Virus record (IMG/VR): IMGVR_UViG_2541047739_000006
DNA: 34,603 nt
Source of the DNA: a virus
Taxonomy: Duplodnaviria; Heunggongvirae; Uroviricota; Caudoviricetes
Strand: one strand, 5' to 3'
The translations under genes were made by a program, and so were the position numbers. The notes beneath the pieces were generated by a model. It was not told where the DNA came from and did no database searches. It saw nothing but the letters and a program-made list of their open reading frames with translations. Of the stretch, positions 1,369-26,667 are shown piece after piece (position 1 is the stretch's first letter; the number at the start of each line of letters is the position of its first letter).

Positions 1369-1444
1369 GCCGATATAGCTCAGTTGGTAGAGCAGCGCAT
1401 TCGTAATGCGAAGGTCGTAGGTTCGACTCCTATTATCGGCACCA
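1369..1444 (+). tRNA. thrW: tRNA-Thr, anticodon CGT
   Basis: 76-nt GCCGATATAGCTCAGTTGGTAGAGCAGCGCATTCGTAATGCGAAGGTCGTAGGTTCGACTCCTATTATCGGCACCA; cloverleaf with anticodon loop TTCGTAA and 3' CCA; sits immediately downstream of proA as thrW does in E. coli. Confidence 0.96.
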
Positions 1445-1578
1445 TTCAAACATCTCCCCAAGTCTACTAAAGTCTTTCAAAACCCCTTATAATCCGCGTA
1501 TTAAAGCCCCGTTCGTCTTTTGACGTCTACTAAAGTCCCTCAAAATCTACGGTCAGATGGGGGTACTTATGGGGGTAT
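1428..1578 (+). other. attL of P4-like element: core in thrW 3' end plus arm-type repeats (GTCTACTAAAGTC x2 at 1462 and 1525; ATGGGGGTACTTATGGGGGTAT at 1557)
   Basis: tRNA 3' end directly followed by direct repeats and then the integrase start. The 22-bp ATGGGGGTAC motif recurs at 21280 and an 11-bp piece of the tRNA 3' end recurs at 21363. Confidence 0.5.
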
Positions 1579-1609
1579 TTGCTGTTCGGTTTAGTGGAGG
1601 TACCCCCAA

Positions 1610-2824
1610 GTGAAACTCAATGCCCGTCAAATAGACACAGCCAAGCCAAAAGAGAAGGCTTACAAGCTGGCCGATGGTGGCGGTTTGTATCTCTTGGTAA
1701 AACCTAATGGAGGTAAATACTGGCGACTTAAATATCGTGTAGCTGGTAAAGAGAAGCTATTGGCACTAGGTGTTTATCCTGAGGTTACTCTAGCCGATGC
1801 TCGGGCAAAACGTGAAGATGCGAAAAGAGGTATCGCTGGTGGTATCGATCCGATGGAAGCGAAACGAGAGGAAAAGATTGCCCGGGAAACGCAGTTAAAC
1901 AACACCTTCAAAGATATTGCCCTTGAGTGGCACAGCAGCAAATTAAAAAAATGGTCTGCTGGTTATGCTTCAGACATCCTCGAAGCCTTCAACAAAGATG
2001 TGTTCCCTTACATTGGCAAAAAACCCATCGCCGAAATCAAACCACTTGAACTTCTGAATGTGCTGCGTCGCATCGAGGGGCGCGGTGCTACAGAAAAAGC
2101 CAAAAAAGTGAGGCAACGGTGCGGGGAAGTTTTCCGCTATGCAATAGTCACTGGTCGCGCAGAGTATAACCCTGCACCAGACCTTACTAGCGCGATGCAA
2201 GGCCATGAATCTAATCATTACCCTTTCCTTACAGCCAAAGAATTACCTGATTTTTTCAAGGCATTGTCCAGTTACTCAGGAAGCGCATTGGTTGTTATGG
2301 CGGCTCGTCTACTGATTATCACCGGCTTGCGGACTGGCGAACTACGTGGCGCATTATGGGATGAAATTGATTTCAACAAGGCTATCTGGGAGATACCCGC
2401 TTCACGTATGAAAATGCGGCGGCCTCATATTGTGCCATTGTCTGAGCAGGCTCTTTCGCTTATTGGGAAGATTAGAGAAATAACAGGCAATTACCCTCTT
2501 ATGTTTCCCGGGCGCAATGATCCAAGGAAAACAATGAGCGAGGCCAGCATAAACCAAGTGTTTAAGCGCATTGGCTACGCTGGACGTGTAACTGGTCATG
2601 GGTTCCGGCACACTATGAGTACGATTTTGCATGAGCAGGGCTATAACACTGCGTGGATAGAAACGCAGCTCGCTCACGTTGATAAGAACTCAATTCGTGG
2701 CACATACAACCATGCGCAATATCTGGATGGAAGGCGGGAGATGCTTCAATGGTATGCCGACTATATGGATTCTCTCGAGCATGGCGGAAATGTGGTGCAT
2801 ATGGTGTTTGAAAAACACGCATGA
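1610..2824 (+). CDS. P4-family tyrosine integrase (site-specific recombinase)
   Basis: 404-aa ORF with GTG start next to the tRNA; N-terminus MKLNARQIDTAKPKEKAYKLADGGGLYLLVKPNGGKYWRLKYR is typical of P4/CP4-57-type integrase arm-binding domains; C-terminal catalytic region with HGFRHT and LAHV motifs. Confidence 0.92.
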   Translation: MKLNARQIDTAKPKEKAYKLADGGGLYLLVKPNGGKYWRLKYRVAGKEKLLALGVYPEVTLADARAKREDAKRGIAGGIDPMEAKREEKIARETQLNNTFKDIALEWHSSKLKKWSAGYASDILEAFNKDVFPYIGKKPIAEIKPLELLNVLRRIEGRGATEKAKKVRQRCGEVFRYAIVTGRAEYNPAPDLTSAMQGHESNHYPFLTAKELPDFFKALSSYSGSALVVMAARLLIITGLRTGELRGALWDEIDFNKAIWEIPASRMKMRRPHIVPLSEQALSLIGKIREITGNYPLMFPGRNDPRKTMSEASINQVFKRIGYAGRVTGHGFRHTMSTILHEQGYNTAWIETQLAHVDKNSIRGTYNHAQYLDGRREMLQWYADYMDSLEHGGNVVHMVFEKHA

Positions 2825-3076
2825 AACAACTGGACAAGTATACAGAGGTTTACTAAAGTATAAGGGAGTAGATTGATAAAAACTCACAGAGGATTGCTAT
2901 TTAACAGTTAGCCATGGAGAAGGGCAATCGCTCTTTTAACAACGAAGATGGAATCTTCTACGCAGCTGAAAAGCTGGATGCTCTTTAACAGCCTTTGGTG
3001 CTTTTCTGATGCAGGAAAGAATAGGGATACATGCACCTTTACAATGCATGTAATGATTCATCCATGAGGCTGCGGA

Positions 3077-3213
3077 GCGCTGACAAAGCGCAATTGCTCT
3101 TTAACATTGATGTGGGCGGGATGGTTCGTCCCGCAGTGACCGATAGATTTCTATCGGGAAACATACAATGATTCAAATATGAATCTACGGCGCTGACAAA
3201 GCGCAATTGCTCT
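3077..3213. repeat. 24-bp perfect direct repeat GCGCTGACAAAGCGCAATTGCTCT (3077..3100 and 3190..3213) with shorter GCTCTTTAACA copies upstream (about 2930, 2980, 3095)
   Basis: Read directly in the int-alpA intergenic region; each copy contains the hairpin GCGC-TGACAAA-GCGC. Confidence 0.6.
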
Positions 3214-3475
3214 CTTGCCTGCCCACCATGCCCTGAAAAAGGGCGTTCTTTAAAACTACTGGATGTCACGCCTAATAGCGTGATCCTGCCGAAATGCAGG
3301 GTAGCTCTACCCTTGTGGAGCAAACAAACCAAAACAATCTGACTATCTTTTATAAAAGACCGCAATATGTTTTTCATATTGTGGTCTTTGGCGTATTCGA
3401 CATTTGACGCAAATAAAACTCTCGCCATTCGTTGCAGGAGGGGGTTATTGCGTCATTAGTACAGGATATTAATAA

Positions 3476-3679
3476 ATGGCTAATTACAATTCATTAATTC
3501 GTCTCTCTGAAGTTCAAAGGCGAACTGGTTATAGCAAAGCATGGATTTATCGTCTTATTAGTCAGGGGAGGTTCCCTAAACAGGTAAAAATTGGAAGTCG
3601 GGCAATTGCTTTTGTTGAGTCTGAAATAGATGAATGGATTGAGAAGTGTATATTAGAATCTAGAGACGAGGTGGCCTGA
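3476..3679 (+). CDS. alpA: AlpA-family phage transcriptional regulator / excisionase-like protein
   Basis: 67-aa ORF with the ...AFVESEIDEWIEKC... motif characteristic of AlpA/Vis-family HTH proteins of P4-like elements. Confidence 0.8.
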   Translation: MANYNSLIRLSEVQRRTGYSKAWIYRLISQGRFPKQVKIGSRAIAFVESEIDEWIEKCILESRDEVA

Positions 3680-4110
3680 TGGAAAAGAAAAACCGCCCAT
3701 TACAGGCGGCTAATTCAGATATTCGTGTATCTGATGTTACGCCCCTTACAAAATCCCTTCAAGCACCAAAGCGCACACCGAAAAAGCATCGTGCCAGAGT
3801 CTATATGCTGCGTACTGGTATAGAGGGATGGACAGAAAATGACATTCTTCGCTACTGCCGTCTGTCTTCTGGTCGTAACTATGCAACAGAGTTAGAACGC
3901 CAGCTTGGAATCACTCTGGAGCGTATCGACGAAAAGAATCCTGATGGTATCGGAACACACCTTCGCTACCGTTTCTCCTGCCGTGGTGATGTTCTGAAAG
4001 TGATCACTCATGTTAACCATCTTGCGAACATAAATGATCACAACGGACTTTCTCAGCAGGAAATTGCCGACATTCTGAAACTCTACCCGGACGCGTTTAA
4101 CGCCGCCTAA
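3679..4110 (+). CDS. hypothetical protein (P4-like element)
   Basis: 143-aa ORF; start overlaps the alpA stop (ATGA-type coupling); basic N-terminus. Confidence 0.6.
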   Translation: MEKKNRPLQAANSDIRVSDVTPLTKSLQAPKRTPKKHRARVYMLRTGIEGWTENDILRYCRLSSGRNYATELERQLGITLERIDEKNPDGIGTHLRYRFSCRGDVLKVITHVNHLANINDHNGLSQQEIADILKLYPDAFNAA

Positions 4111-4122
4111 CGGAGACTGAAA

Positions 4123-4956
4123 ATGAACATCGAAAAAAGCAGATTAATTTCTGAGGCCGCCCCTCATCTGAACGCCTCTCTGGGCACAATTAACGGTAAT
4201 GAATTTGCCGCAATTGTCCCGGTTATTCCTGGTCATATCGGTGGGCGTGAAACCAATATTGTTAGCGCAAAAGCGTTACACAAAGCGTTGGGCGTGGGAA
4301 AAGACTTCTCTACATGGATCACTGATCGCATCTCTGAATATGACTTCACCATTGGGCACGATTACTCAGTCCATAAAACAATTTCCCCAAATTTGGGGAA
4401 AAGCCCGAATGGCGCGGCTTACAGCAAGATAAAGCACTCTGGCAGACCCGGCAAAGACTATCTGTTAAGTGTCGGAATGGCGAAAGAACTGGCAATGATC
4501 GAACGCAATGATCAGGGTCGCGCTATCCGCCGTTATTTCATCCAGTGCGAGGAAGAATTACAGCGTAGCGTTCCTGAAATCGCCGCCCGCTATCGTCGCC
4601 AGCTAAAAGCCCGTCTCAGTGCCGCAAACAACTTTAAGCCAATGTGCGATGCGCTGAATATGGCCCGTGCCGAGATGGGTAAAACGACGCAGCAACACCA
4701 CTACACAAACGAGAGCAATATGATTTCTCGTATCGTTCTTGGTGGGCTAACTGCTAAGCAGTGGGCGCGGATAAATGGCTATTCTGGCGAACCTCGCGAC
4801 CATATGAACGCAGAACAGCTTGAGCACCTCTCATATCTCGAAAGCACCAATATCACGTTAATTGATATGGGCATGGAATATGAGCAGCGCAAAGGAGAAC
4901 TCACCCGCCTGTCGCAACGCTGGCTCGCCAAGCGTCTGGAGGCGGTCCATGTTTAA
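4123..4956 (+). CDS. phage antirepressor-like protein (AntA/AntB-type N-terminal domain)
   Basis: 277-aa ORF; segment ALHKALGVGKDFSTWITDRISEYDFTIGHDYS resembles the AntA/AntB antirepressor domain; family assignment by motif only. Confidence 0.7.
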   Translation: MNIEKSRLISEAAPHLNASLGTINGNEFAAIVPVIPGHIGGRETNIVSAKALHKALGVGKDFSTWITDRISEYDFTIGHDYSVHKTISPNLGKSPNGAAYSKIKHSGRPGKDYLLSVGMAKELAMIERNDQGRAIRRYFIQCEEELQRSVPEIAARYRRQLKARLSAANNFKPMCDALNMARAEMGKTTQQHHYTNESNMISRIVLGGLTAKQWARINGYSGEPRDHMNAEQLEHLSYLESTNITLIDMGMEYEQRKGELTRLSQRWLAKRLEAVHV

Positions 4957-5131: not shown

Positions 5132-5626
5132 CCGTCCAGAAGAAGATATTTTCACTGGCTGGTATGTCACCAAAATCCAGCAATATGACAGCAAAGTCTG
5201 GCATTAATACAGCAGATACAAGCAAAGTTTATCATTTTCTGGTGGTAGGAGCGGATGCCTTAACTATGTCAGAAATTACGGTCGATGGTGTTAGCGTTGA
5301 GAAGGTCAGCGGCTGCGCCAGAGAATTTCTGGTCGTAGATGGCTTTCTCTGCTCGCGTAGTGACTCCACAAAAACCTTCGTCCATACGCGCGACGTTAAC
5401 GAAATGAGCGCGATGTATTGTGCATCTGGTGCTTCCAATACTGAGTTTTCGGAGTCCATAAAAAAGAGCTTGCCGTTATGCGGCAACACGGTTTATGGTT
5501 ATAAGGCACCTCATAAAACGGGTGCCGGGATTGGCGTCCTGAAAATTCTGAAGGCGACATATGACGCGCCGGGTGATGCTGCCAACTTACTGATTTAGTG
5601 TATGATGGTGTTTTTGAGGTGCTCCA

Positions 5627-5902
5627 GTGGCTTCTGTTTCTATCAGCTGTCCCTCCTGTTCAGCTACTGACGGGGTGGTGCGTAACGGCAAAAGCACCGC
5701 CGGACATCAGCGCTATCTCTGCTCTCACTGCCGTAAAACATGGCAACTGCAGTTCACTTACACCGCTTCTCAACCCGGTACGCACCAGAAAATCATTGAT
5801 ATGGCCATGAATGGCGTTGGATGCCGGGCAACAGCCCGCATTATGGGCGTTGGCCTCAACACGATTTTACGTCACTTAAAAAACTCAGGCCGCAGTCGGT
5901 AA
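5627..5902 (+). CDS. insA: IS1 InsA
   Basis: 91-aa [43 protein letters not shown]...; recognised IS1 InsA. Confidence 0.95.
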
Positions 5903-6324
5903 CCTCGCGCATACAGCCGGGCAGTGACGTCATCGTCTGCGCGGAAATGGACGAACAGTGGGGCTATGTCGGGGCTAAATCGCGCCAGCGCTGGCTGTTT
6001 TACGCGTATGACAGGCTCCGGAAGACGGTTGTTGCGCACGTATTCGGTGAACGCACTATGGCGACGCTGGGGCGTCTTATGAGCCTGCTGTCACCCTTTG
6101 ACGTGGTGATATGGATGACGGATGGCTGGCCGCTGTATGAATCCCGCCTGAAGGGAAAGCTGCACGTAATCAGCAAGCGATATACGCAGCGAATTGAGCG
6201 GCATAACCTGAATCTGAGGCAGCACCTGGCACGGCTGGGACGGAAGTCGCTGTCGTTCTCAAAATCGGTGGAGCTGCATGACAAAGTCATCGGGCATTAT
6301 CTGAACATAAAACACTATCAATAA
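5821..6324 (+). CDS. insB: IS1 InsB (expressed as InsAB' by -1 frameshift)
   Basis: 167-aa ...[47 protein letters not shown]...; recognised IS1 InsB. Confidence 0.95.
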
Positions 6325-6961
6325 GTTGGAGTCATTACCGACGCGCCGAGCGTCTTTTTTTATGTCGTAGGTCTGACTCACCCATTTTTTGGGCGTTGGT
6401 GTATAATCCAGCGCCTTTGTCAATCAATGGTGGCTCAGGCGGGGGCTTCTTCGGAAGCGCCGGTATCCTTCAGAGCCGGTTACGCCAACCCTGTCTGGGC
6501 TACCACCAGCGAAATTGGCGTTTCCGGTGGTAGCGTAACCTGCTATCTGAAGGAGGCTGCCACATGCTGGCTACTACCCCTACCCAAAAACCGCAATTTA
6601 TCTGGATTATCGCCGCAGTTCGCCGCGATTGCCCGACAATTACCGCCAAAATTCATCATATTGCTGCCGAGTCTGAACGCGATGCTCGCCGTTCTCTGGT
6701 GCGCGATCACGTCTGCTTTTTTGCTGGTCGTATCCGCATGGAGGTGGCACATGATTAAAACCTACGATGTGCATATGGATCCCCTCGAACGCACAAGCCA
6801 GATCATCACACTGACAGAAGTGATTAACGACATTCTGGTGAGCAACTCTCCCTCACGAGACGAAAGGCTGAAGGCGTTACTCGCGATATTGGATCTCGCC
6901 GTTCGTGACGTTCATTTCCTGCTGGAAGGTGGCGAAATGCCAGGAAAAACGGGGGCAACCA

Positions 6962-8229: not shown

Positions 8230-8239
8230 GGATGGAGCC

Positions 8240-8581: not shown

Positions 8582-8945
8582 AAATGCAGAAATGGCGCTT
8601 AGCTCCGCAATCGGAGAGCAGGTGGCAAAGATTGCTGGTGCTGTGTGGATTCATAACCTTCATTCTACTGGTGAAGAGAAAATGGCAATTCAGACGCCAG
8701 AGGGACGCACCATTACTACATCTCTGAAGCCGTCAGATGTTTGTGATCTGATTTGCGCATTCATGTACCCAGCAATGAGGACTGTCCACGGCGATAAGTG
8801 GAAACTTGCGACAACCGCTGAATTTGATATGTGGCTAAACAATGATGGCATGCTGACTGATTACGGAATAACCAAGTGGCAGATGCTGGTTAGCCATATC
8901 GCAAACGCTATAGACCACGTGGGGTACGGTGATGCGAAACATTGA
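8574..8945 (+). CDS. hypothetical protein
   Basis: 123-aa ORF overlapping both neighbours by a few bases. Confidence 0.6.
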   Translation: MRENAEMALSSAIGEQVAKIAGAVWIHNLHSTGEEKMAIQTPEGRTITTSLKPSDVCDLICAFMYPAMRTVHGDKWKLATTAEFDMWLNNDGMLTDYGITKWQMLVSHIANAIDHVGYGDAKH

Positions 8946-11688
8946 TCTTATCCGTCAGGTTATCAGTGCGTCTGAAAACAACTGGCCTCATGTGCTGGGC
9001 TGCCTGAACATAAATGTCCCTGACTCTCCGCGCCGTCATGCTCCCTGCCCTGCATGTGGGGGCAAAGATCGATTCCGGTTCGATGACAACGGGCGCGGTA
9101 GCTTCATCTGTAATCAGTGCGGCGCTGGTGATGGGCTGGATTTAATTAAACGCGTAAATAACTGCGACACAACAGAGGCGGCGCTTCTTGCCGCTGATGT
9201 TCTGGGTATTGATTACCGGACAACGGAAACACCAGAAGCCACCAGCCAGAAACGGGAACAACTGGAAACCGAGCGCCAGCGACGCGAACAGGAGCGCCTG
9301 AAAAGGGCAGAGAAGGACGAACAACAAAGACGGGATACGTTTTCCCGTCAGTTTGATGACATGCGCAGAAAGGCTGTAAACGGCAAATCTGATTATCTGG
9401 TTGCGAAAGGGGTAGGTGATTTTACATTCCCCGTGTTGCCCGATGGATCTCTGTTGCTGGCGCTGGTGGATAAATCCGGCGCAGTCACAGCAGCACAGAC
9501 TATTACATCACATGGTGAAAAAAGACTCCTGACAGGTTCAGCAAAGCGGGGGGCATATCACGCCATAAACGCGCCAGAAACAACACAGAGCATCTTAATC
9601 GCAGAAGGGCTGGCAACGGCATTATCTGCCCATTTAATTCGTCCAGAGGCGCTGACAGTGGCGGCGATTGATGCCGGGAACCTGTTATATGTCGCCCAGG
9701 TACTGCGGGATAAATTTCCTTCAGCACAAATCATCATTGCTGCGGATAACGACCACAGCGAAGGAAGACAAAACACGGGGAGAATAGCAGCAGAAAAAGC
9801 AGCTTTATCTGTTTCTGGATGGGTGGCATTACCCCCGACAGATCACAAAGCAGACTGGAATGATTACCACCAAAAACACGGCATTAAATGCGCCACAGAA
9901 GCGTTCAATAAGTCAATGTACCAACCACAGGGTAATGGCGTGAAACATGAGCCACAGACCATTGAGGGAAGCGATTTTAAGGTTATGGATACCGACCCAC
10001 TGAAACCAAGAATAGAAAGCCGCGAGGATGGTATTTATTGGGTATCTCCGAGAGCTGACAGCCAGAGTGGAGAAATCATCAATAACGAAAGCTGGTTATG
10101 TTCTCCGTTAAGCGTTATCGGTACTGGCAGAGACGATAAAGACCAGTATCTCATTCTTCGCTGGCTGTCGTTTGGTTCTGAAACGCCGACAACCGCTGCC
10201 ATTCCACTGGCTGATATTGGTGAACGTGAAGGATGGCGCACACTTAAAGCTGGTGGGGTAAATGTCACGACCAAAAGCAGCCTCAGAGCAATACTGGCAG
10301 ACTGGCTACAACGCAGTGGCTCTCGTGAATTGTGGCGTGTTGCTCATGCCACTGGCTGGCAATGCGGAGCGTACATCATGCCTGATGGGGAAATCATCGG
10401 AACACCTGAAAATCCTGTGCTGTTCAGCGGGAGAAGCTCAGCCGCAGCCGGATATACCGTCTCAGGGAGCGCGAAAAGCTGGCGTGATAACGTGGCGCGT
10501 CTGGCCTTTGGTAACTATTCAATGATGACCGGGATCGGCGCAGCACTGGCAGCGCCATTGATTGGGCTGGTGGGCGCTGACGGGTTCGGCATTCATTTCT
10601 ATGAGCAGTCGAGCGCAGGTAAGACCACCACGGCAAACGTGGCGAGCAGCTTATACGGCAACCCTGATTTACTGCGGCTGACGTGGTACGGAACCGCGCT
10701 GGGGCTGGCAAATGAGGCCGCCGCCCACAATGACGGACTAATGCCGCTTGATGAAGTTGGTCAGGGCGCTGATCCTGTCAGCGTTTCACAGTCTGCCTAT
10801 GCGTTATTTAACGGTGTAGGGAAACTGCAAGGCGCTAAAGATGGTGGAAACCGGGATCTAAAACGCTGGCGTACAGTGGCAATCAGCACCGGAGAAATGG
10901 ATTTAGAAACATTTATCGCTACTTCCGGGCGAAAAACCAAAGCCGGGCAACTGGTGCGACTGCTGAATATTCCGTTGAGTAAAGCAGTACGCTTTCACGA
11001 TTACCAGAACGGAAAACAGCACGCAGACGCACTGAAAGACGCTTACCAGCATCACCACGGCGCGTCCGGGCGTGAGTGGATTAAATGGCTGGCAGACCAC
11101 CAGCAACAGGCTATTAAAACCGTTCGTGACTGCGAAAGCAGATGGAGAAGCCTGATCCCATCCGATTATGGTGAGCAGGTTCACCGTGTAGCCGCGCGAT
11201 TTGCCATTCTGGAGGCCGCATTGTTGTTAGGCGAGGTTGTAACAGGCTGGGATGCTCAGACATGCCGTGATGCGATACAGCACAGCTATAACGCATGGTT
11301 GCGCGAGTTCGGCACAGGTAACAAAGAGCATCAGCAGATTATTGAACAAACGGAGGCATTTCTTAATGCCTATGGGCTTAGCCGTTTTGCACCATTTCCA
11401 TACAGCCCGGCAGATTTGCCCATCAAAGATTTAGCCGGATACCGTCAGCGTGGAGAACATGACGAAAGCCCAATGATTTTCTACACATTCCCGGCCACAT
11501 TTGAAAAGGAGATCGCATGTGGTTTCAACGCAAAACAGTTTGCTGAAGTGTTGAAAAAAGCCGGGATGCTAACCCCACCAAACAGCGGTCGTGGATACCA
11601 AAGAAAATCACCACGTATTCAGGGACGACAAATAAACGTTTATGTACTCAATTACCAGCCAGGAGATTATAACTCATCTGAAGAATGA
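8929..11688 (+). CDS. P4 alpha-like primase-helicase (Zn-ribbon + TOPRIM primase + P-loop NTPase)
   Basis: 919-aa ORF; CPACGG...CNQCG zinc ribbon; TOPRIM-like ILIAEGLATALSA ... AADNDHSEG; Walker A SSAGKTT and Walker B LMPLDEVG; immediately followed by iterons. Confidence 0.88.
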   Translation: MMRNIDLIRQVISASENNWPHVLGCLNINVPDSPRRHAPCPACGGKDRFRFDDNGRGSFICNQCGAGDGLDLIKRVNNCDTTEAALLAADVLGIDYRTTETPEATSQKREQLETERQRREQERLKRAEKDEQQRRDTFSRQFDDMRRKAVNGKSDYLVAKGVGDFTFPVLPDGSLLLALVDKSGAVTAAQTITSHGEKRLLTGSAKRGAYHAINAPETTQSILIAEGLATALSAHLIRPEALTVAAIDAGNLLYVAQVLRDKFPSAQIIIAADNDHSEGRQNTGRIAAEKAALSVSGWVALPPTDHKADWNDYHQKHGIKCATEAFNKSMYQPQGNGVKHEPQTIEGSDFKVMDTDPLKPRIESREDGIYWVSPRADSQSGEIINNESWLCSPLSVIGTGRDDKDQYLILRWLSFGSETPTTAAIPLADIGEREGWRTLKAGGVNVTTKSSLRAILADWLQRSGSRELWRVAHATGWQCGAYIMPDGEIIGTPENPVLFSGRSSAAAGYTVSGSAKSWRDNVARLAFGNYSMMTGIGAALAAPLIGLVGADGFGIHFYEQSSAGKTTTANVASSLYGNPDLLRLTWYGTALGLANEAAAHNDGLMPLDEVGQGADPVSVSQSAYALFNGVGKLQGAKDGGNRDLKRWRTVAISTGEMDLETFIATSGRKTKAGQLVRLLNIPLSKAVRFHDYQNGKQHADALKDAYQHHHGASGREWIKWLADHQQQAIKTVRDCESRWRSLIPSDYGEQVHRVAARFAILEAALLLGEVVTGWDAQTCRDAIQHSYNAWLREFGTGNKEHQQIIEQTEAFLNAYGLSRFAPFPYSPADLPIKDLAGYRQRGEHDESPMIFYTFPATFEKEIACGFNAKQFAEVLKKAGMLTPPNSGRGYQRKSPRIQGRQINVYVLNYQPGDYNSSEE

Positions 11689-12434: not shown

Positions 12435-12450
12435 AAATGGATGGCATCGC

Positions 12451-12912
12451 ATGGAACTAAAATTTATTGATAACCCTGTGCGATTACAGGCCTTTCTTAA
12501 CGAGCCAGGCAATACCGAAAATATTGTTGAGCCGGGGCACACGTACTACATCAAGCCTGATGCGGTATATCTCGGCATCTACGAAGGATTAGTGCTGGCT
12601 GGCGTTCATGAAGTGCGTAACTTCTGGCATAGCGTTGTTGAATGCCATGCGGTGTACGACCCCGGATTCCGTGGTGAATATGCACTGCAAGGACATCGAT
12701 TATTCTGCAAATGGCTTCTCGAAAACTCACCATTCCTTAACAGCATTACCATGGTTCCTGACACCACGAAATACGGACGGGCAATTATCCGTTTGCTTGG
12801 CGCTACCCGTGTTGGTCATCTTGATGATGCTTATATCAGATGTGGTAAACCCGTCGGCGTAACGCTTTATCAGTTAACTCGGCAACAATATAAGGAATTC
12901 AGCGAATGTTAA
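12451..12912 (+). CDS. hypothetical protein (possible P22 gp14-like; low confidence)
   Basis: 153-aa ORF, first of a same-strand run of four genes whose sizes (153/225/249+/701 aa) parallel P22 genes 14-7-20-16 as I recall them; similarity not verified. Confidence 0.65.
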   Translation: MELKFIDNPVRLQAFLNEPGNTENIVEPGHTYYIKPDAVYLGIYEGLVLAGVHEVRNFWHSVVECHAVYDPGFRGEYALQGHRLFCKWLLENSPFLNSITMVPDTTKYGRAIIRLLGATRVGHLDDAYIRCGKPVGVTLYQLTRQQYKEFSEC

Positions 12913-13583
12913 TTACCCATATAGCTTATAAACATCTCAATCGTGCCGTATACGAAAAAGGCGGTGATGGTGGTGCCTCTAAAGCTCAGGCGAAGGCCCA
13001 GCAGCAGGCAATTGATTTGCAGCGCGAGCAGTGGAATACGGTGATGAATAATCTCAAGCCGTATGCAGAAGTCGGATTGCCTGCTTTACAACAACTACAA
13101 GGACTGATGACTCTGGAAGGGCAGAATAAAGCCGCGAATGATTTCTTTGGTTCTGGTTTATATAAAACACAGGCAGATCAGGCCCGTTATCAGAACCTTG
13201 TCTCAGCAGAAGCTACCGGGGGGCTTGGCTCAACAGCTACCAGTAACCAGTTATCTTCCATTGCGCCCATGCTTTATAACAATTGGCTCAGTGGGCAAAT
13301 GCAAAATTATGGAAACCTGCTAAATGTCGGGATGAATGCGGCATCAGGGCAGGCAACAGCAGGGCAAAACTACGCCAATAATACCGGACAACTCTTGCAG
13401 GGGCTTGGCGCTATTCGTGCAGGTCAGGCGCAGCAGCCATCCAGTCTTGCGCGTGGTATTGGTGGGGCGGCATCAGGCGCTTTAGCGGGTGCGCAACTTG
13501 GTTCCGTTGTTCCGGGTATAGGTAATGTCGCCGGGGCTATTGGTGGTGGGCTTATTGGTCTTGTTGGGGGGCTTGGATTCTAA
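12906..13583 (+). CDS. Q/G-rich hypothetical protein with glycine-zipper C-terminus (possible phage ejection/internal protein)
   Basis: 225-aa ORF overlapping the upstream stop; C-terminus GGAASGALAGAQLGSVVPGIGNVAGAIGGGLIGLVGGLGF. Confidence 0.65.
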   Translation: MLITHIAYKHLNRAVYEKGGDGGASKAQAKAQQQAIDLQREQWNTVMNNLKPYAEVGLPALQQLQGLMTLEGQNKAANDFFGSGLYKTQADQARYQNLVSAEATGGLGSTATSNQLSSIAPMLYNNWLSGQMQNYGNLLNVGMNAASGQATAGQNYANNTGQLLQGLGAIRAGQAQQPSSLARGIGGAASGALAGAQLGSVVPGIGNVAGAIGGGLIGLVGGLGF

Positions 13584-14327
13584 TGGCGACATGGCAACTT
13601 GGCGGGCTGCCTAGCATGGCACCGCAAAATGATAATGCTCCTCGTTCTTCCGTTCCTCAGCCTGTGCAGTATCAGCAGCAGCCAAACGTAGGTTTAATGG
13701 CGCTACAGGGGCTAAGAGGCGTTGCTGAGATTAATCAGCAGGCACGTCAACAACAGCGTAAAGCAGAGTTTCAGAAAGCATATGCCGGGGCTTTTGAGTC
13801 TGGAGACAGAAACAAAATGCGCAGTCTTATTTCTGAGTATCCAGAAGAATTTGAAAGCGTTCAGAAAGGGATGGGCTTTATTGATGACGACCAGAGAAAT
13901 TCTATTGGTCATCTTGCGACTAGTGCTCAAATCGCATCTTCGCTCGGAACTGGGGCATTTGGAAAATTCATAGCAGATAACGAAGATGAAATGCGTCGTT
14001 TGGGAATTTCTCCTGAGTCTGTTGCCGAAATGCATGTTAATGATCCACAGGGATTCCAGCGGCTTGCTGGTAGTATGGCACTGTTTTCTCTCGGTCATGA
14101 GAAGTACTTCGATATCAAAGATCGAATGGAAGGTCGGGATATTGAGCGTGGCAAGTTGGCAGAGACGATCCGCAGCAATCAAGCCGGAGAAGCACTTCAG
14201 GCGAGAGGGCAGGATATTAGCCGAGCAAATGCGTTAACGTCAGCATATGCACCAACAGCCGCAATGCAGAATTACAATCAATACGCGCAAATGTTAAAGG
14301 CGGATCCAGAGGGGGCTGCGGCATTTG
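13583..14327 (+). pseudogene. hypothetical phage-like protein, 3'-truncated by IS1
   Basis: ORF starts at the upstream stop (ATGG overlap) and runs into the IS1 end at 14328; the apparent stop lies inside IS1. Confidence 0.6.
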
Positions 14328-14342
14328 GGTAATGACTCCAAC

Positions 14343-14846
14343 TTATTGATAGTGTTTTATGTTCAGATAATGCCCGATGACTTTGTCATGCAGCTCCACC
14401 GATTTTGAGAACGACAGCGACTTCCGTCCCAGCCGTGCCAGGTGCTGCCTCAGATTCAGGTTATGCCGCTCAATTCGCTGCGTATATCGCTTGCTGATTA
14501 CGTGCAGCTTTCCCTTCAGGCGGGATTCATACAGCGGCCAGCCATCCGTCATCCATATCACCACGTCAAAGGGTGACAGCAGGCTCATAAGACGCCCCAG
14601 CGTCGCCATAGTGCGTTCACCGAATACGTGCGCAACAACCGTCTTCCGGAGCCTGTCATACGCGTAAAACAGCCAGCGCTGGCGCGATTTAGCCCCGACA
14701 TAGCCCCACTGTTCGTCCATTTCCGCGCAGACGATGACGTCACTGCCCGGCTGTATGCGCGAGGTTACCGACTGCGGCCTGAGTTTTTTAAGTGACGTAA
14801 AATCGTGTTGAGGCCAACGCCCATAATGCGGGCTGTTGCCCGGCAT
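14343..14846 (-). CDS. insB: IS1 InsB
   Basis: Identical 167-aa InsB as at 5821..6324. Confidence 0.95.
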
Positions 14847-15040
14847 CCAACGCCATTCATGGCCATATCAATGATTTTCTGGTGCGTACCGGGTTGAGAA
14901 GCGGTGTAAGTGAACTGCAGTTGCCATGTTTTACGGCAGTGAGAGCAGAGATAGCGCTGATGTCCGGCGGTGCTTTTGCCGTTACGCACCACCCCGTCAG
15001 TAGCTGAACAGGAGGGACAGCTGATAGAAACAGAAGCCAC
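14765..15040 (-). CDS. insA: IS1 InsA
   Basis: Identical 91-aa InsA as at 5627..5902. Confidence 0.95.
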
Positions 15041-15104
15041 TGGAGCACCTCAAAAACACCATCATACACTAAATCAGTAAGTTGGCAGCATCACCGGGTG
15101 ATTA

Positions 15105-17210
15105 ATGGCTAAAGCATGGAAAGATGTTATCGCCTCTCCACAGTATCAGGCGTTAGCACCAGAACAAAAAGCGCAGGCTCAGGAGCAATACTTCAATGAA
15201 GTCGTGGCCCCGCAAGCCGGAGAAAGTGTAGCGCAGGCTAAGCAGGCTTTTTATGCTGCCTATCCACTACCATCAACGAATGAAATAGACCGATCCCAAT
15301 CAGCAACTCAAAATATTCAACATACATCATCTGATAATTCTCTTGCGTCAGGGTATGCAAAGTTAGCTACTCAGCAAAGAGAGGGGCTTGAGCGTTCAGC
15401 AGAACAGGGAGCCAGTCTTGGGGCTGCGATGCGCGATGCTATAACAGGCGAAAGCCGAATGACTCCAGAGATGGAGAGACTGCAAAATGTCGACCTTGCC
15501 CCAGAGTTAACCTCACTCAGCATGGGTGCTCTAAAAGCTCGATGGTCTCAACTTTTCGGCTCTGACGCATCTCAGGAAAAGATTCTTCAGAGCATGGGAG
15601 CGAAATTAAGGCAGGATGAGAAGGGTAACACTATCGTTTCCCTGCCATCCGGTGATTATGCTCTGAACAAGCCGGGTTTATCGCCGCAAGACGTGGCATC
15701 GTTTCTGGCTAATGCGCTGGCGTTTACACCAGCGGGCAGGGCTGGAACGGTGCTTGGTGCCATAGGAAAATCAGCAGCTACAGATTTAGCACTACAGGGA
15801 GCCACCAGCCTTGCTGGTGGAGAAGATATTGATCCGTTACAAACGGTAATTTCTGCTGGCATTGGTGGTATTGGTAAGGGGCTGGAAAATACAGCGAGTG
15901 CGGTTTCGAGGGCTGTTCGTGGTGATATGTCGCCTGAAGCAAAGGCTGCTGTCAACTTTGCATCGGAAAGAAATCTGCCGTTAATGACCAGTGACATGCT
16001 GAAAGATAAAACCTTTATGCAGAGTCAGGCTCAGACATTAGGCGAAAGAGTTCCTTTTTTTGGAACCGGTAAGAATCGGCTGAATCAACAACAAGCACGA
16101 GAAAATTTAGTCAGAACATTTAGCGATGGTCTGGGTGGCATTTCTGATAAACAGCTTTATGAATCTGCGACTAAAGGGCAACAAAAATTCATTGAGGCAG
16201 CAGGAAAGCGATATAACCGCATAATTGACGCTATGGGGGATACCCCTGTCGATCTCTCAAACACGGTAAAAGCTATCGACAATCAGATTGCCGTGTTAAG
16301 CCGCCCGGGCAAATCTCAGGATAGAGCCGCGGTAAAAGTCTTGCAGCAATTTAAAGACGATATCACCAGCGGACCAAATGACCTGCGTCTGGCGAGGGAA
16401 AACAGAACCGATCTTCGAAAGCGATTTATGGCGTCATCTGACACTGTTGATAAAGATACGCTCCAGAAAGCCAGCGATATTATCTACAAGGCATATACGG
16501 CGGATATGAAAAAAGCCGTAGCCAAAAATCTTGGAGCAGACGAAGCCATTAATATGGCAAGGGTTGATCGGTCATGGTCTAAATTCAATGACATGATGGG
16601 AAGAACGCGCGTTCAAAAGGCAATAGCCAGCGGTAAGGCCACGCCTGAGGATGTAACAAAACTCGTTTTTAGCCAAAGCCCATCAGAACGTTCTCAGCTT
16701 TACAGGCTTCTGGATGACAATGGTAGGCAAAACGCACGAGCAGCCATAGTTCAGAATGCTGTAGATAAGGCGACTGATCCGTCTGGAAATATCAGTGTTG
16801 AGAAGTTTATTAATGCGTTACACCGGAACAGGAAGCAATCAGCAACTTTCTTTAAAGGCGTACATGGAAAGGAACTGGACGGCGTTATTAAATACCTCAA
16901 CGATACAAGACACGCGGCAAAAGCGAACGTTCAAAACTTAAATGGTCAGCAGCTTTATGGATTGTTAGTTGGTGGTGGCATCATAAACGCAGCAGTATTA
17001 GCGGGGATGCTAAAAACGGCTGCGTTTGTTGTTCCTGCTGCTGGTGCCGTAGGCGGAGCAGCGAAGGCATACGAAAGCCCTGTTATACGAAATGCCTTGT
17101 TACGTCTGGCAAATACGCCAAAAGGTAGCACAGCATATGACAGAGCGATCAGTACGGTCACACAATCGCTCACCAGAGTCGCACAGGCATCACAAAAAGA
17201 AGCTCAATAA
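15105..17210 (+). CDS. large A/Q/G-rich hypothetical protein (possible phage ejection / DNA-transfer protein)
   Basis: 701-aa ORF starting 10 nt after the IS1 end (in-frame TGA 2 codons upstream); low-complexity coiled-coil-like N-terminus and hydrophobic glycine-rich C-terminal segment. Confidence 0.65.
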   Translation: MAKAWKDVIASPQYQALAPEQKAQAQEQYFNEVVAPQAGESVAQAKQAFYAAYPLPSTNEIDRSQSATQNIQHTSSDNSLASGYAKLATQQREGLERSAEQGASLGAAMRDAITGESRMTPEMERLQNVDLAPELTSLSMGALKARWSQLFGSDASQEKILQSMGAKLRQDEKGNTIVSLPSGDYALNKPGLSPQDVASFLANALAFTPAGRAGTVLGAIGKSAATDLALQGATSLAGGEDIDPLQTVISAGIGGIGKGLENTASAVSRAVRGDMSPEAKAAVNFASERNLPLMTSDMLKDKTFMQSQAQTLGERVPFFGTGKNRLNQQQARENLVRTFSDGLGGISDKQLYESATKGQQKFIEAAGKRYNRIIDAMGDTPVDLSNTVKAIDNQIAVLSRPGKSQDRAAVKVLQQFKDDITSGPNDLRLARENRTDLRKRFMASSDTVDKDTLQKASDIIYKAYTADMKKAVAKNLGADEAINMARVDRSWSKFNDMMGRTRVQKAIASGKATPEDVTKLVFSQSPSERSQLYRLLDDNGRQNARAAIVQNAVDKATDPSGNISVEKFINALHRNRKQSATFFKGVHGKELDGVIKYLNDTRHAAKANVQNLNGQQLYGLLVGGGIINAAVLAGMLKTAAFVVPAAGAVGGAAKAYESPVIRNALLRLANTPKGSTAYDRAISTVTQSLTRVAQASQKEAQ

Positions 17211-17229
17211 CTGGTTAGCCATGGATGGC

Positions 17230-17844: not shown

Positions 17845-17957
17845 ACCAACCCCCTTTAGCGTTGTTTAGAATGGCAATCATCATATATCCAAGACATGGC
17901 ATTTGGTACATAGCTTGGGTCGGGATTTCAAGTCCGCTCCCAGTTGATGGGGCCGTT

Positions 17958-18342
17958 ACAGTACGCGCATATCCGCTTTATGTGAAACAGGAAGATTTTT
18001 CTGATATCACTGCCACAGCAAAACACCAATTTCGTGACCAGTACGCGCGCGAGGGGTATCAGTTGCAAAATTTTTTGCAACTGCGTCCGACCAGTACGCA
18101 CACGATGGCGGGGGATACCATAAAACTGTTCTCTACATGAGACAGAGTGGTGGTGATGTGTTGATTATCGGCGTATATGCGCACAGGACGCGCTATGACG
18201 ATGTTTTATGCGGGTACACCAATCACATGTATCTGGTGTGATAAATCGCGTTACATGACCTCTCATGTTGTGCTGGTGGTTATCACGACTTTCTGAATCT
18301 GGCCTTTGCCTGATATTTTGCGACAAGTACGCGCGCGTAGCA
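17958..18342. repeat. repeat family with alternating-CG palindromic core (CAGTACGCGC at 17958; GACCAGTACGCGCGCGA at 18036; GACCAGTACGCACACGA at 18089; GACAAGTACGCGCGCGTAGCA at 18322) plus an 11-bp inverted repeat CAGTTGCAAAA-tt-TTTTGCAACTG at 18060..18083
   Basis: Read directly; a fifth copy lies at 19712..19734. Confidence 0.6.
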
Positions 18343-18365
18343 TCGACAGCATACACATTGGATAT

Positions 18366-18587
18366 TCATTTTGTGACCAATGCGATAAGTAGCGGGATAA
18401 GAATTGATAAAATCAACAGGCCGATGATCCACTTTTGATTTTCACTGGCCTTATCTCTATTTTCATCAATCTTATCAATAATTCGACGCTCCAATCCGTG
18501 CATATCACCGCGAATGGCAATCATCTCATTGCGAACATCAGGGAAGTGGTTGGCTTGATGTTCAATGTGTGGCGTTCTGCCTTTCAT
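18366..18587 (-). CDS. small tail-anchored membrane protein (coiled-coil N-terminus + C-terminal TM)
   Basis: 73-aa ORF; charged N-terminal region then WIIGLLILSILIPLLIALV; resembles XhlA/holin-like small proteins, not verified. Confidence 0.5.
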   Translation of the reverse strand: MKGRTPHIEHQANHFPDVRNEMIAIRGDMHGLERRIIDKIDENRDKASENQKWIIGLLILSILIPLLIALVTK

Positions 18588-18666
18588 ATCTGATCCTCAC
18601 CTATCGTCACTACCTGCTGGTGTATAAAGGTATTGGCCCAAGCAACTTTCCAATGGGCACTCATGT

Positions 18667-19122
18667 TTATACGCTGACCTTACAATCAATCACTGCTTTT
18701 AGCTTTTCAGCATTGCTTCCCTGACGCTTCCACGCGCTGTAAATATCTTTATCCCACGCTTTACCAGCTTTTGTTTGATAGCCTGCTTCATTGATCCGTT
18801 CAGCTATCACACGCCCATTATCAAATCCCTGTTGGATGGTATCGGCAATGATCTTTATAACTGCCGTTTCGTTATATGGTTTTGGTGGGATGTTCGGCTT
18901 TCCGGCAATAAGCGACGCAGCGGCTTTTTCCATGCGCTCCACCAGCCCAAGCATTCGTGAATCAATAGACTTTTCCGGCTGCCCCAGCTTCATGCGAATC
19001 GCATCAACAAGCCAGGAGGTTTTATCTCCTCCAGAAGCGAGAACAGACCGATTAAACTCATCCTGCAATTCAGATGGGATGCGGAACGCGACCAGATTAG
19101 ATTTGCTCATTGCAAAGACCAT
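18667..19122 (-). CDS. ribbon-helix-helix (Arc/MetJ-type) domain protein with C-terminal extension
   Basis: 151-aa ORF; N-terminus NLVAFRIPSELQDEFNRSVLASGGDKTSWLVDAIRMKL fits the beta-strand/helix/G-turn/helix RHH pattern (compare P22 Arc/Mnt). Confidence 0.6.
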   Translation of the reverse strand: MVFAMSKSNLVAFRIPSELQDEFNRSVLASGGDKTSWLVDAIRMKLGQPEKSIDSRMLGLVERMEKAAASLIAGKPNIPPKPYNETAVIKIIADTIQQGFDNGRVIAERINEAGYQTKAGKAWDKDIYSAWKRQGSNAEKLKAVIDCKVSV

Positions 19123-19220
19123 ATCAGTGAGTAATATCCATACAGTATACCACTGTATAACACTGTTATACGCTCAAATATCAGCCAGAAAATAACGGAC
19201 CAATCACAAATCTATCGCTG

Positions 19221-19352
19221 TGTTGTTGGTTCAGAGCTGGGCTGTGTTGGTTCAAAATGAGTTGATGTTGGTTCAATATTTCAGAAAAAACACAATAAAA
19301 ACAACAATCTTTACAAATTGAACCAACTGAACCAACTGAACCAACACCTTTT
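19221..19352. repeat. crr-like second iteron module; inverted copy of the ori module
   Basis: The reverse complement begins with the same 43 nt as the ori module (AAAAGGTGTTGGTTCAGTTGGTTCAGTTGGTTCAATTTGTAAAGA), followed by an AT-rich spacer and three TGAACCAAC copies. Confidence 0.55.
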
Positions 19353-19381
19353 TGCTTATCTATATAATCTGAGAGGCAGAA

Positions 19382-19663
19382 ATGATAAGGGACAGGAAAG
19401 CTGAAGAGCTGGAGTCAAAAGGGCTATACCGGAGAGCTGCCGCACGATGGATGGAAGTCATGCTGTTATGCACCGAGGACGATGATCGGGAATGGATAAA
19501 GCGCCGCCGTGAAACGTGTCTGGAGAACGTGAAGCGCCCGCCCGTGAAGGTTGAGGAATTTGGCGACCTGCATAAAGCTGTTACCGAAACGCAACACCGC
19601 ATGGGGATAGCGCAACCGAACGGTAACGCCTTCCGGTTAAATGGCGGCAAGAGGCAAAGGTAG
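19382..19663 (+). CDS. PerC-family transcriptional activator homolog
   Basis: 93-aa ORF; N-terminus MIRDRKAEELESKGLYRRAAARWMEVML matches the PerC/Pch family signature as I recall it. Confidence 0.6.
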   Translation: MIRDRKAEELESKGLYRRAAARWMEVMLLCTEDDDREWIKRRRETCLENVKRPPVKVEEFGDLHKAVTETQHRMGIAQPNGNAFRLNGGKRQR

Positions 19664-19960
19664 ACCACCAGAGGGAAATCATCCTCTGGCTGGCGGTTTC
19701 TGGTATTTCGGGACAAGTACGCGCGCGCGTAGCACCCAATCGGTGAGGAAATAGCGGCGACCTGAATGGTCAAAATCACAACGCAGCTATCCCCGTAAGC
19801 AGCGCTTAACGGAATAGCAGTAACCTGAATCCAGTGGGGAGGGGGTAGTCAAATCTCTACAGCCCTGACTATCCGGGACTGCCCGCCCCATCGTTTTTTT
19901 ATACCCGCGAAAAATGAAATTTAATCCGGGCGTGTTTCATTCTTCCAGAGGGTATGACGT

Positions 19961-20146
19961 ATGACACCACGCGAAATAGCCTTATTGACCATCGCCAAAC
20001 TTGAGCACGGAGGCCACCAGCTTACACAGGCAGATCAACGGGAGATAGAACGATCAGTTAATGCCGATATAGCCCGGCGCGACAGGTTCCGCGAAATGAT
20101 GCGAGCACCTGCCTACCAGTGGAAGAAGCCAGCGCCGCGCAGGTAG
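19961..20146 (+). CDS. hypothetical small protein
   Basis: 61-aa ORF with a GAGGG Shine-Dalgarno-like sequence upstream; no recognisable domain. Confidence 0.35.
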   Translation: MTPREIALLTIAKLEHGGHQLTQADQREIERSVNADIARRDRFREMMRAPAYQWKKPAPRR

Positions 20147-20266
20147 ATATGGGATTATTCCACATGTAACTTATGCGTATTAAGCAAATTTCCTTTATTC
20201 ACCTTTACAGAATTGTGAGTACGTCAGTATCGTTATCCTTCCGATTCGCATTTATTCAGGATTTGC

Positions 20267-20809
20267 ATGTACCAGCTAAAGATAACCATCCGAGACAGCA
20301 AACCACCTATATGGCGGCGTGTGCTGGTTCCAGAGCAAATCCCCTTTAGTAAACTTCATGCCGTGATCCAGTTAGCTTTTGGCTGGAATGACGAACACCT
20401 GTATATGTTCGAGAAAGGGCGTAAAGGTGATCCAGGTAGCGAGTATCGCGTATGGGGTGAGGATGAAAGCATGGGTAACGCGGCAATCACGCCACTATGG
20501 GCGGCGCTCCAGAATGAGGGTGACAAGCTGGTTTACACGTATGACTTTGGCGACTGGTGGGATTGCGTCATTGTGCTGGAGAAGCAAACACACGATACGA
20601 GTAATCAGCCCATTAGCTGCCTGCGTGGGAAAGGCACCACCCCGGCGGAAAACTCAGGCGGCTTGCATGGTTACAATGAATTGCTATTACAGGCCAGAGA
20701 GTCTGATAATCCTGAGCAGGCCGAGATCCACAATTTCCTGATGCTGGATATTGAACGCCGGGTTTACGACCTGAGCCGCATCAACGACAGATTGCAGGCT
20801 ATTAACTGA
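20267..20809 (+). CDS. plasmid pRiA4b ORF-3-like family protein
   Basis: 180-aa ORF; N-terminus LKITIRDSKPPIWRRVLVP...LHAVIQLAFGWNDEHLYMF is the hallmark of the pRiA4b ORF-3-like (PF07929) family. Confidence 0.75.
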   Translation: MYQLKITIRDSKPPIWRRVLVPEQIPFSKLHAVIQLAFGWNDEHLYMFEKGRKGDPGSEYRVWGEDESMGNAAITPLWAALQNEGDKLVYTYDFGDWWDCVIVLEKQTHDTSNQPISCLRGKGTTPAENSGGLHGYNELLLQARESDNPEQAEIHNFLMLDIERRVYDLSRINDRLQAIN

Positions 20810-21161
20810 CCCGCATGTATTCACCTGATATTGCGTTGTCAGCGCCGCCAGTATCGCGCATAACAGCGCACTGACCGGGTAAACCGTAGCGCACGACCGT
20901 TGCGTTAGTATCACCGCCGCGCCGTATCTGGCGCGATTCATACACTGTCACCCGCTCAAGCAGTCCACCAGCAACCATGCTTTCCAGTGTGCGCCGGGTT
21001 GATTCGAGCTGGTGACGCTTATCGAACGACACCATGCCATGAAGCAGGTAGGCCACACCCGACACATCGAACGGCGGCGCACCAATCTCACCAGTCACCC
21101 ATTCGAGGTTATCCGGTTCAAAGTAGCTAAGTATCTCTTTTTTGCGGCTGGTCATTCTCAT
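20802..21161 (-). CDS. hypothetical protein
   Basis: 119-aa ORF convergent with and overlapping the previous gene by 8 nt; AAGGA upstream. Confidence 0.5.
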   Translation of the reverse strand: MRMTSRKKEILSYFEPDNLEWVTGEIGAPPFDVSGVAYLLHGMVSFDKRHQLESTRRTLESMVAGGLLERVTVYESRQIRRGGDTNATVVRYGLPGQCAVMRDTGGADNAISGEYMRVS

Positions 21162-21279
21162 GGCTGGCTGATTCCTTATTGTGGGATAGCACTATCATAC
21201 AATAAGTGGGTTAAAGGGAGAGCGTTACCGCCTGATATGCTGTATGAATAACAACCAAATTTCAGGGGCGGAAAAAGAT

Positions 21280-21378
21280 ATGGGGGTACTTTTGGGGGTA
21301 TCTATAAAAAATGAACAATAAAAAAGGCAACAAAAACAAAGCTTATCGCCTATGTGTATTGTTCCTATTATCGCACAA
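21280..21378 (+). other. putative attR of the P4-like element (arm-type repeat ATGGGGGTACTTTTGGGGGTAT plus degenerate core TCCTATTATCG-CACAA)
   Basis: 21/22 match to the arm repeat at 1557; TCCTATTATCG at 21363..21373 matches the thrW 3' end at 1428..1438, then diverges. Confidence 0.4.
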
Positions 21379-26666: not shown

Positions 26667-26667
26667 T

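Follow-up and report, generated by a model that had tools for sequence, protein, structure and literature searches.

Two questions are raised by the locus analysed here, namely where the mobile element inserted in the transfer RNA (tRNA) gene thrW ends, and whether the short repeats near its two extremities are the arms of an attachment site. The window, by which is meant the whole stretch of 34,603 nucleotides (IMG/VR virus record IMGVR_UViG_2541047739_000006, Caudoviricetes), extends from the proA start codon (proA, 1-1254) to the start codon of a minus-strand integrase gene at its far end and represents the proA-thrW-yagU region of Escherichia coli. An earlier note on this DNA had described a P4-family element at thrW with arm-type repeats on both sides and a right attachment site (attR) reduced to 11 bases of the tRNA gene, and had read it as an old, fixed insertion. 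In the current analysis positions 1447-21380 have been identified as a 19.9-kb integrative island in the 3' end of thrW, about 18.4 kb without its two copies of the insertion sequence IS1. This island, referred to as island 1, was very probably inserted by a P4-type heterobivalent tyrosine integrase (Int), for which the copies of the octamer TGGGGGTA are the predicted arm-type sites and 21363-21380 is the true attR. The coordinates of the features are collected in Table 1.

Arm-type repeats and their counterparts in phage P4

The 22-bp motif ATGGGGGTACTT[A/T]TGGGGGTAT has exactly two matches in the window, at 1557-1578 and 21280-21301, both on the plus strand, and none in 100 shuffled sequences. 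Each match is made up of two TGGGGGTA units with a period of 12 bp. The octamer itself occurs five times in 34.6 kb as against 0.58 expected, a number reached in no shuffle, and all the five copies (1558+, 1570+, 1601-, 21281+ and 21293+) are situated at the ends of the proposed element. The inverted fifth copy, which the earlier note had not listed, lies between the GGAGG ribosome-binding site and the GTG start codon of int at 1610 and ends 1 nt before that codon.

The first 11 bases of the core, TCCTATTATCG, occur exactly at 1428 and 21363 and nowhere else in the window; the chance of an additional exact 11-mer, estimated from the window length, is about 0.02. The P-arm pair ends 61 nt before the 21363 copy. 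A search of the window for longer repeats of the tRNA 3' end (25 nt, up to 3 mismatches, ungapped) matched only the tRNA gene itself, because the attR copy needs a 1-bp gap. With one gap the right junction reads TCCTATTATCG-CACAATC as compared with TCCTATTATCGGCACCATT at the left attachment site (attL).

The integrase of the island shares a sequence identity of 42% with the integrase of phage P4. The first 30 residues are nearly identical, and the Arg, His-x-x-Arg and Tyr motifs align. The GenBank record of P4 (NC_001609) annotates six 'attP arm sequence repeats' and a 20-bp core, and the units in the direction of int read TGGGGGCA. In both P4 and the window the repeat period is 12 nt in both arms, the distance from CCA to the first P' site is 114 nt and the distance from the inverted site to the conserved start codon is 2 nt. 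The end of the second P site is 76 nt from CCA in P4 and 78 nt in the window, and the first P' site is 41 nt and 43 nt, respectively, from the inverted site. As judged from these distances, the window repeats are the counterparts of the P4 arm repeats in number, orientation, period and spacing: the core is flanked on both sides by two direct repeats, and a further, inverted copy is found where int starts. The layout matches almost base for base, with all distances within 2 nt. The P4-type integrase next to thrW, the 22-bp motif, the P/P' geometry and the 11 contiguous bases of the core, all put forward in the earlier note, are thus borne out.

In addition to the integrase architecture and the tRNA gene 3' end as target, the island shares with P4 an AlpA/Vis-family gene, an RNA of the C4/CI type and the N-terminal domain of the alpha primase. 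The two differ in the arm motif (TGGGGGCA in P4 and TGGGGGTA in the island), in the target (leuX in P4 and thrW in the island), in the 1-bp deletion of the attR core copy of the island, in the DUF927 C-terminus of the island primase and in size (11.6 kb as against approximately 18-20 kb). The island also differs in lacking sid, delta, psu, epsilon, gop, beta and cII, no homologues of which were obtained by tblastn against the window (nothing below E = 0.09); the absence of sid, delta and psu had been remarked earlier. The attachment-site architecture is already known from P4, where it was described long ago. The finding is real but ordinary, and the current understanding of site-specific recombination is unchanged by it.

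Relatives of the integrase were collected by scanning one genome per species, which gave 79 loci with Int identity of 62-98%, adjoining six tRNA genes (tRNA-Thr, Arg-TCT, Gly-CCC, SeC, Ser-TGA and Arg-CCT). The triple of P' sites at -52, -40 and -9 is kept in most of these loci, although the surrounding sequence has diverged. A distal motif pair lying 56-62 nt before its own copy of the tRNA 3' end has been identified in 13 further loci, at 6.5-19.7 kb from int. These 79 integrase relatives, together with the 14 elements having both arms, form a data set of P4-family attachment sites. One of the relatives (L025, NZ_JBQPOM010000063.1; 72% Int identity) is found next to an enterobacterial-type thrW in a contig titled Vagococcus sp., which may be a contaminant or misassigned.

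The three P' copies vary together, being either TGGGGGTA/TACCCCCA (T-type) or TGGGGGCA/TGCCCCCA (C-type). At residue 29 of Int, all 41 T-type proteins have Leu, and 21 of the C type, P4 included, have Glu or Gln (loci L005-L083 and P4, L084). This residue may recognise the seventh position of the arm site (T or C), which would constitute a simple recognition code of the P4 family.

Another set of repeats, three direct copies of (G/A)TCTAC, is located between the core and the P' sites. They are spaced by 63 and 20 bp, their positions are conserved among the relatives, and the first two lie within a 13-bp repeat, GTCTACTAAAGTC. In other lineages all three copies read GTCAAC or GTCCAC. Hexamer and linked AlpA types go together, irrespective of the arm type of Int: the loci L018-L020, L031 and L037 have C-type arms yet TCTAC hexamers and an AlpA of the window type, and L022-L028 have TCAAC hexamers and a divergent AlpA. 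The hexamers are probably sites for AlpA, acting as an excision factor similar to Vis and TorI. Two independent protein-DNA covariations, of Int residue 29 with the arm motif and of AlpA type with the hexamers, are therefore represented in the data set.

The non-coding spacer between int and alpA (2895-3106) contains TGCT(C/A)TTTAACA at 2895, 2979 and 3095 and a variant at approximately 2928. This spacer is a hot spot of replacement; a DUF6387 gene is located there in strain SWHEFF_68, and another relative (L001) differs at 3003-3244.

The right boundary and a second island in tandem

The window has been compared by megablast with 5426 complete genomes of E. coli, and the counts of features given below require at least 80% coverage unless stated otherwise. 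In many of these genomes the match to the window stops at 21372-21399. Strain SWHEFF_68 (L002) carries the island alone, which ends in TCCTATTATCG-CACCATT and is followed by TAAATCAATAAGTTATC..., a 155-bp integrase fragment and yagU. A synthetic empty-site query, in which proA-thrW is joined to this flank, has an uninterrupted match in 81 genomes, for example IMT16316 (L004), and the flank is therefore the native side of the bacterial attachment site (attB). Conversely, thrW is joined directly to the window from 21363 onward in many genomes (H91-H110; MS8345, L085), which thus contain the neighbouring DNA without island 1. The genomes with the island alone, those with its neighbour alone and the 81 empty sites agree that 21363-21380 is the true attR of island 1.

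The DNA to the right of this core is not chromosome but, as the earlier note had missed, the left end of a second island in tandem, and the junction is a hybrid of the attR of island 1 and the attL of island 2. The P' end of island 2 (TCAAGAAAATC...) starts inside the hybrid junction, at 21379. In the closest colinear relative (L001) a separate attR of the second island, ACTCCTATTATCGGCACCATT with the native flank after it, is located about 150 bp past the point corresponding to the window end, and a perfect 20-bp copy of the core follows the second integrase (L001 45491-45511). With an empty site as the sole comparison, the insertion as a whole would be taken to end beyond the window. The comparison with an empty thrW locus, which the earlier note had proposed as a check, thus established the native flank, and it upheld the right boundary only when combined with the genomes that carry a single island. 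The gene content of the second island suggests a capsid-forming satellite. It carries a 1331-bp insertion at 30168-31498 that splits a gene approximately 1.8 kb long in L001.

Further traces of other elements have been observed at this locus. The 155-bp integrase pseudogene fragment of the 'empty' site (L004 1960-2114) is situated 15 bp after thrW and points toward it, so that even the native flank is the remnant of an older element. In strain ET565 (L003 1-9030) a prophage carrying genes for a baseplate, tail fibres and gtr-type glucosylation is interposed between thrW and the island. Prophage and island are set apart by a repeat of 46 bp from the thrW 3' end, and the arrangement is a further example of stacking at thrW. 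In SCU-172 (NZ_CP054353.1; H71, H111) the exact window junction and a 99.9% match to int are found on opposite strands about 30.8 kb apart, an arrangement that is not colinear with the window and suggests an IS-mediated inversion in that strain.

The junctions are given here with the core in upper case and the following bases after a slash. The attL of the window reads TCCTATTATCGGCACCATT/caaacatc. Island 1 alone ends in TCCTATTATCG-CACCATT/taaatc (L002, L003 and L092), the tandem arrangement of L001 reads TCCTATTATCG-CACCATT/aagaaaatc, the junction of thrW with island 2 (L085) reads TCCTATTATCGGCACCA/tcaagaaaatc, and the window has TCCTATTATCG-CACAA/tcaagaaaatc. The missing G is observed in 8 of the 10 thrW elements of which both ends have been captured. 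The carriers of the single G include a 6.5-kb element of Citrobacter amalonaticus with different cargo (L015) and two IMG/VR relatives with Int identity of 86% (L124 and L127), and the P-core-P' junction of L085, an attP-like joint of two tandem copies, also has a single G. Since the single G recurs in diverged elements and in an attP-like junction, the limit of 11 bases is a family trait, and deletion of the G by decay has been ruled out on these grounds. The C-to-A change at the CCA position is the only lineage-specific change of the core; it is absent from the relatives, and the window junction is matched at 100% in 3 of the 5426 genomes.

Three circumstances account for the limit of 11 bases: the core of the island family has one G where the tRNA gene has GG, the second island, integrated in tandem at the same core, supplies the sequence beyond, and one extra C-to-A change has occurred in the lineage of the window. 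For the calling of boundaries it is relevant that the normal attR of this common integrase clade shares only 11 contiguous bases with the tRNA gene and that islands stack in tandem at thrW, so that tools relying on long perfect repeats or on empty sites only would misplace or merge such islands.

Predicted recombination and the alternative explanations

The five TGGGGGTA copies would be bound by the N-terminal domain of the integrase, two direct copies left of the core forming the P arm and two direct copies with one inverted copy right of the core forming the P' arm. Joined through the core, the arms would rebuild an attP of about 330 bp, predicted to read ...TGGGGGTACTTTTGGGGGTAT-61 nt-TCCTATTATCGCACCATTCAAACATC.... 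The integrase would bridge arm and core sites and synapse attP with the thrW 3' end. The position of the G difference on the P side of the island suggests strand exchange to its right, in CACCA(TT). Exchange in or near this segment would leave the tRNA gene intact, with P' and int beside thrW and P at the far end, and AlpA bound to the phased hexamers would favour the reaction of attL with attR, that is excision. Indirect support for the binding of the arm repeats by Int, and for integration and excision of the element, comes from the conservation of the repeats at six tRNA genes, from the residue-29 covariation and from the polymorphic presence of the island.

Since the P' sites lie on the ribosome-binding region of int, the integrase probably represses its own gene through them. 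Occupation of P'1-P'3 by Int would restrain the expression of int, in line with what has been reported on P4 Int and KplE1 IntS (PMC2951348). In the attL of KplE1 (CPS-53) at argW, recombined by IntS and TorI, the arm and excision-factor sites overlap the control region of int, with negative autoregulation (PMC2951348). As in KplE1, the tRNA and integrase genes of the island are co-oriented, with arm-type and excision-factor sites between them, and the integrase of the island shares 49% identity with integrases of the Sf6/HK620/IntS type. The two systems have different arm motifs, the sites of KplE1 containing TAAA, and the regulation, which is experimental in KplE1, is a prediction for the island.

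That the repeats might serve solely as operators of int, or as sites of another protein, instead of as arm sites for recombination is very hard to sustain. The overlap of the P' copies with the translation start of int, and the reported self-repression of P4 Int and KplE1 IntS through sites so placed (PMC2951348), are what would be expected of operators. Such a role leaves unexplained the second pair of repeats about 20 kb away, fixed at 56-62 nt from the distal core in 14 loci, and the P-arm pair annotated in P4. The operator and arm-site roles are in any case mutually compatible. It is similarly very improbable that a single composite island extends from 1447 to beyond 34603, with its sole functional right end outside the window and the 21363 site as an internal relic. 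The empty-site comparison does remove the whole block, the core copy after the second integrase of L001 is perfect and the internal junction is imperfect. Against this, each half occurs alone with its own core copies. Island 1 is found alone in SWHEFF_68 and in many genomes in which the match ends at 21372-21382, the left end of island 2 stands directly after thrW in L085 and H91-H110, and the P-arm pair lies at a P4-like distance from the 21363 core.

The earlier view of an old, fixed insertion with a decayed attR is somewhat less remote but still improbable. The copy in the window is in fact damaged. It has the extra C-to-A change, which the relatives lack and which belongs to a junction shared exactly by three genomes, and the ash and gp20 genes are each interrupted by an IS1 copy, in one case with a 667-bp deletion. 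The loss of the G is nevertheless the usual state of the clade, as it is found in the Citrobacter element of different cargo and in the attP-like junction of L085. None of the five arm sites departs from the exact motif, and both int and alpA have full-length reading frames. The island is moreover polymorphic in E. coli, int with the P' arm being present in 505 of the 5426 genomes and the site being empty in 81, and it is found at thrW in at least ten other genera. The island family is mobile and polymorphic, present or absent among E. coli strains, and is not an old fixed relic.

Several observations weigh against the reading of the island as a P4-type element inserted through these arm sites and bounded at 21363-21380. 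Two of the seven bases of CACCATT differ between attL and the window junction, and with CACAATC facing CACCATT the excision of island 1 alone is probably impaired in this copy. The single-G core is not universal, since GG is found in L086 and L089, whose P arms are almost identical to those of single-G relatives, and the position of the predicted crossover is thereby uncertain. The covariation of residue 29 could be explained by linkage, codon 29 being about 150 nt from the P' sites, and the distal arm of C-type elements has been checked in P4 (C-type) and L025 (mixed) only. A simple scan for consensus sigma-70 promoters gave none, either ahead of int or within the P arm, and an overlap of arm sites with a promoter remains putative.

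Backbone, cargo and distribution

Table 1. Features of the thrW locus, in coordinates of the window
Feature	Position	Strand	Basis or remark
thrW, tRNA-Thr(CGT), integration target	1369..1444	+	ARAGORN; Rfam tRNA 71.8 bits
attL core TCCTATTATCGGCACCATT	1428..1446	+	Junction comparison; empty site L004; identity with empty-site attB ends after CACCATT
Three direct (G/A)TCTAC repeats	1462-1467, 1525-1530, 1545-1550	+	Between core and P' sites
P'1 and P'2 predicted arm-type sites, TGGGGGTA x2, 12-bp period	1558..1577	+	114 nt after tRNA CCA end
P'3 predicted inverted arm-type site (TACCCCCA on + strand)	1601..1608	-	Same position as inverted repeat annotated at P4 int start
Tyrosine integrase, 404 aa	1610..2824	+	Pfam: Arm-DNA-bind_3 (1e-28), Phage_int_M, Phage_integrase
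AlpA/Vis-family helix-turn-helix protein, 67 aa, probable excision factor and regulator	3476..3679	+	Pfam Phage_AlpA 7e-20
IS1 insertion, 768 bp, 9-bp target duplication	5572..6339	+	Splits ash-family gene, 84 nt upstream of C4 RNA
C4 antisense RNA (P1 C4 RNA family)	6423..6510	+	Rfam RF01695, 79.9 bits against gathering score 45
Primase-helicase, 919 aa (Zn-ribbon, Toprim, DUF927)	8929..11688	+	
P22-type ejection-protein cargo: gp14 (DUF2824), gp7, gp20, gp16-like protein (701 aa)	12451..17210	+	
IS1	14328-15095		With 667-bp deletion; truncates gp20
P1 and P2 predicted arm-type sites, TGGGGGTA x2, 12-bp period	21281..21300	+	End 78 nt before CCA position of core
Hybrid junction, attR of island 1 / attL of island 2, TCCTATTATCG-CACAATC	21363..21380	+	Junction comparison
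Second island in tandem: major capsid protein, Dit-like tail protein, DUF6538-type integrase	21381..34603 and beyond	.	
Second-island major capsid protein	27941-28969		Phage_cap_E
Second-island Dit-like tail protein	32474-33187		
Second-island DUF6538-type integrase, far end	33269-34603	-	

The backbone of the island is P4-like and comprises Int, AlpA, a protein of the AntA family, a DUF4222 protein, a region of the Ash/Icd type, a C4 antisense RNA and a primase-helicase with a P4-like N-terminal third. The cI/ash region of P4 matches window 6397-6734, and the C4 RNA match lies inside this homologous region. The IS1 copy upstream may separate this immunity RNA from its upstream promoter. The N-terminal third of the primase shares 34% identity with residues 5-339 of P4 alpha (1.5e-41), and its C-terminal part is DUF927.

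The families of Sid, Delta, Psu and Epsilon gave no Pfam or PHROG match among the open reading frames (ORFs) scanned. Genes for capsid morphogenesis and small terminase, which are typical of phage-inducible chromosomal islands (PICIs), were likewise absent among the ORFs scanned, these being most of those of at least 70 aa and alpA. By the seven-component definition of P4-like satellites (Int, AlpA, alpha, epsilon, Sid, Delta and Psu; PMC10085698), Int and AlpA are present in the island. The late operon of Sid, Delta and Psu and the gene for Epsilon are not found, and the island is therefore not filed as a P4-like satellite. Of the components of a PICI, the island has Int, AlpA and a primase-replicase. 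A PICI would further have capsid-morphogenesis and small terminase genes and no virion structural genes; in the island neither gene appeared among the ORFs scanned, and P22-type ejection-protein genes are present. Sets of the three components Int, AlpA and primase-replicase also describe P4-like elements (SatelliteFinder; PMC10085698). The gene order int, alpA, primase-replicase is shared with enterobacterial PICIs and 'Type C PICI-like' elements, from which the island differs in the absence of a capsid-morphogenesis or small terminase gene and in the presence of genes for virion ejection proteins. To our knowledge PICIs are typically devoid of ejection-protein genes.

The cargo includes a block of ejection-protein genes of the P22 type, in which the gp16-like protein shares 67% identity with its counterpart in phage N7. 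A minus-strand ORF of 204 aa beside this block has a weak SieA-like PHROG match (4e-4), and genes for PerC and pRiA4b-ORF3 are also among the cargo. With the thrW prophages of the P22/Sf type the island has in common the attachment tRNA gene and the gp14, gp7, gp20 and gp16 genes. The island is not a prophage; genes for capsid, portal, terminase, tail and lysis are all absent from it.

The cargo downstream of the primase is variable, as the earlier note had recognised. Strain E189 (L086) has a related Int and attachment module with a different primase and a set of methyltransferase, DUF262 and HEPN genes. Both gp20 and gp16 are present in only 8 of 80 IMG/VR relatives of the primase; an ejection module forming the family-defining core has been ruled out on this basis, and the block is considered as cargo.

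P22-like podophages use the thrW site. It is conceivable, if rather doubtful, that islands with a P4-type backbone are satellites or parasites of such phages and that the gp14-gp7-gp20-gp16 block, found in about 250 E. coli genomes, gives their own ejection proteins to hijacked virions or poisons helper virions as a defence. We know of no satellite family that supplies its own ejection proteins to helper virions or poisons them, and in the literature we found nothing specific on satellites carrying ejection proteins, nor on a named thrW island of this type. The association of a P4-type backbone with P22-type ejection-protein genes provides a lead for the biology of satellites and of defence.

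Among the 5426 genomes, the P arm is present in 276, the block from the primase to gp7 in 253 and the tandem junction in 12. Int relatives with 86-98% identity are encoded at thrW in Escherichia, Pseudocitrobacter, Mangrovibacter, Pluralibacter, Citrobacter, Lonsdalea, Leclercia, Enterobacter, Atlantibacter and Kluyvera.

A 55-nt inverted repeat with 96% complementarity has also been observed in the window at 11707-11761 and 19298-19352. Each copy contains three tandem GTTGGTTCA units, with an inverted TGAACCAAC about 45 nt later. One copy is situated 19 nt after the stop codon of the primase gene and the other 7.5 kb away, and each is upstream of one of two convergent gene sets. The repeats recall the arrangement in P4, in which one set of iterons (crr) immediately follows alpha and the other (ori) is located elsewhere. 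The two copies may be sites of an origin or of a regulator.

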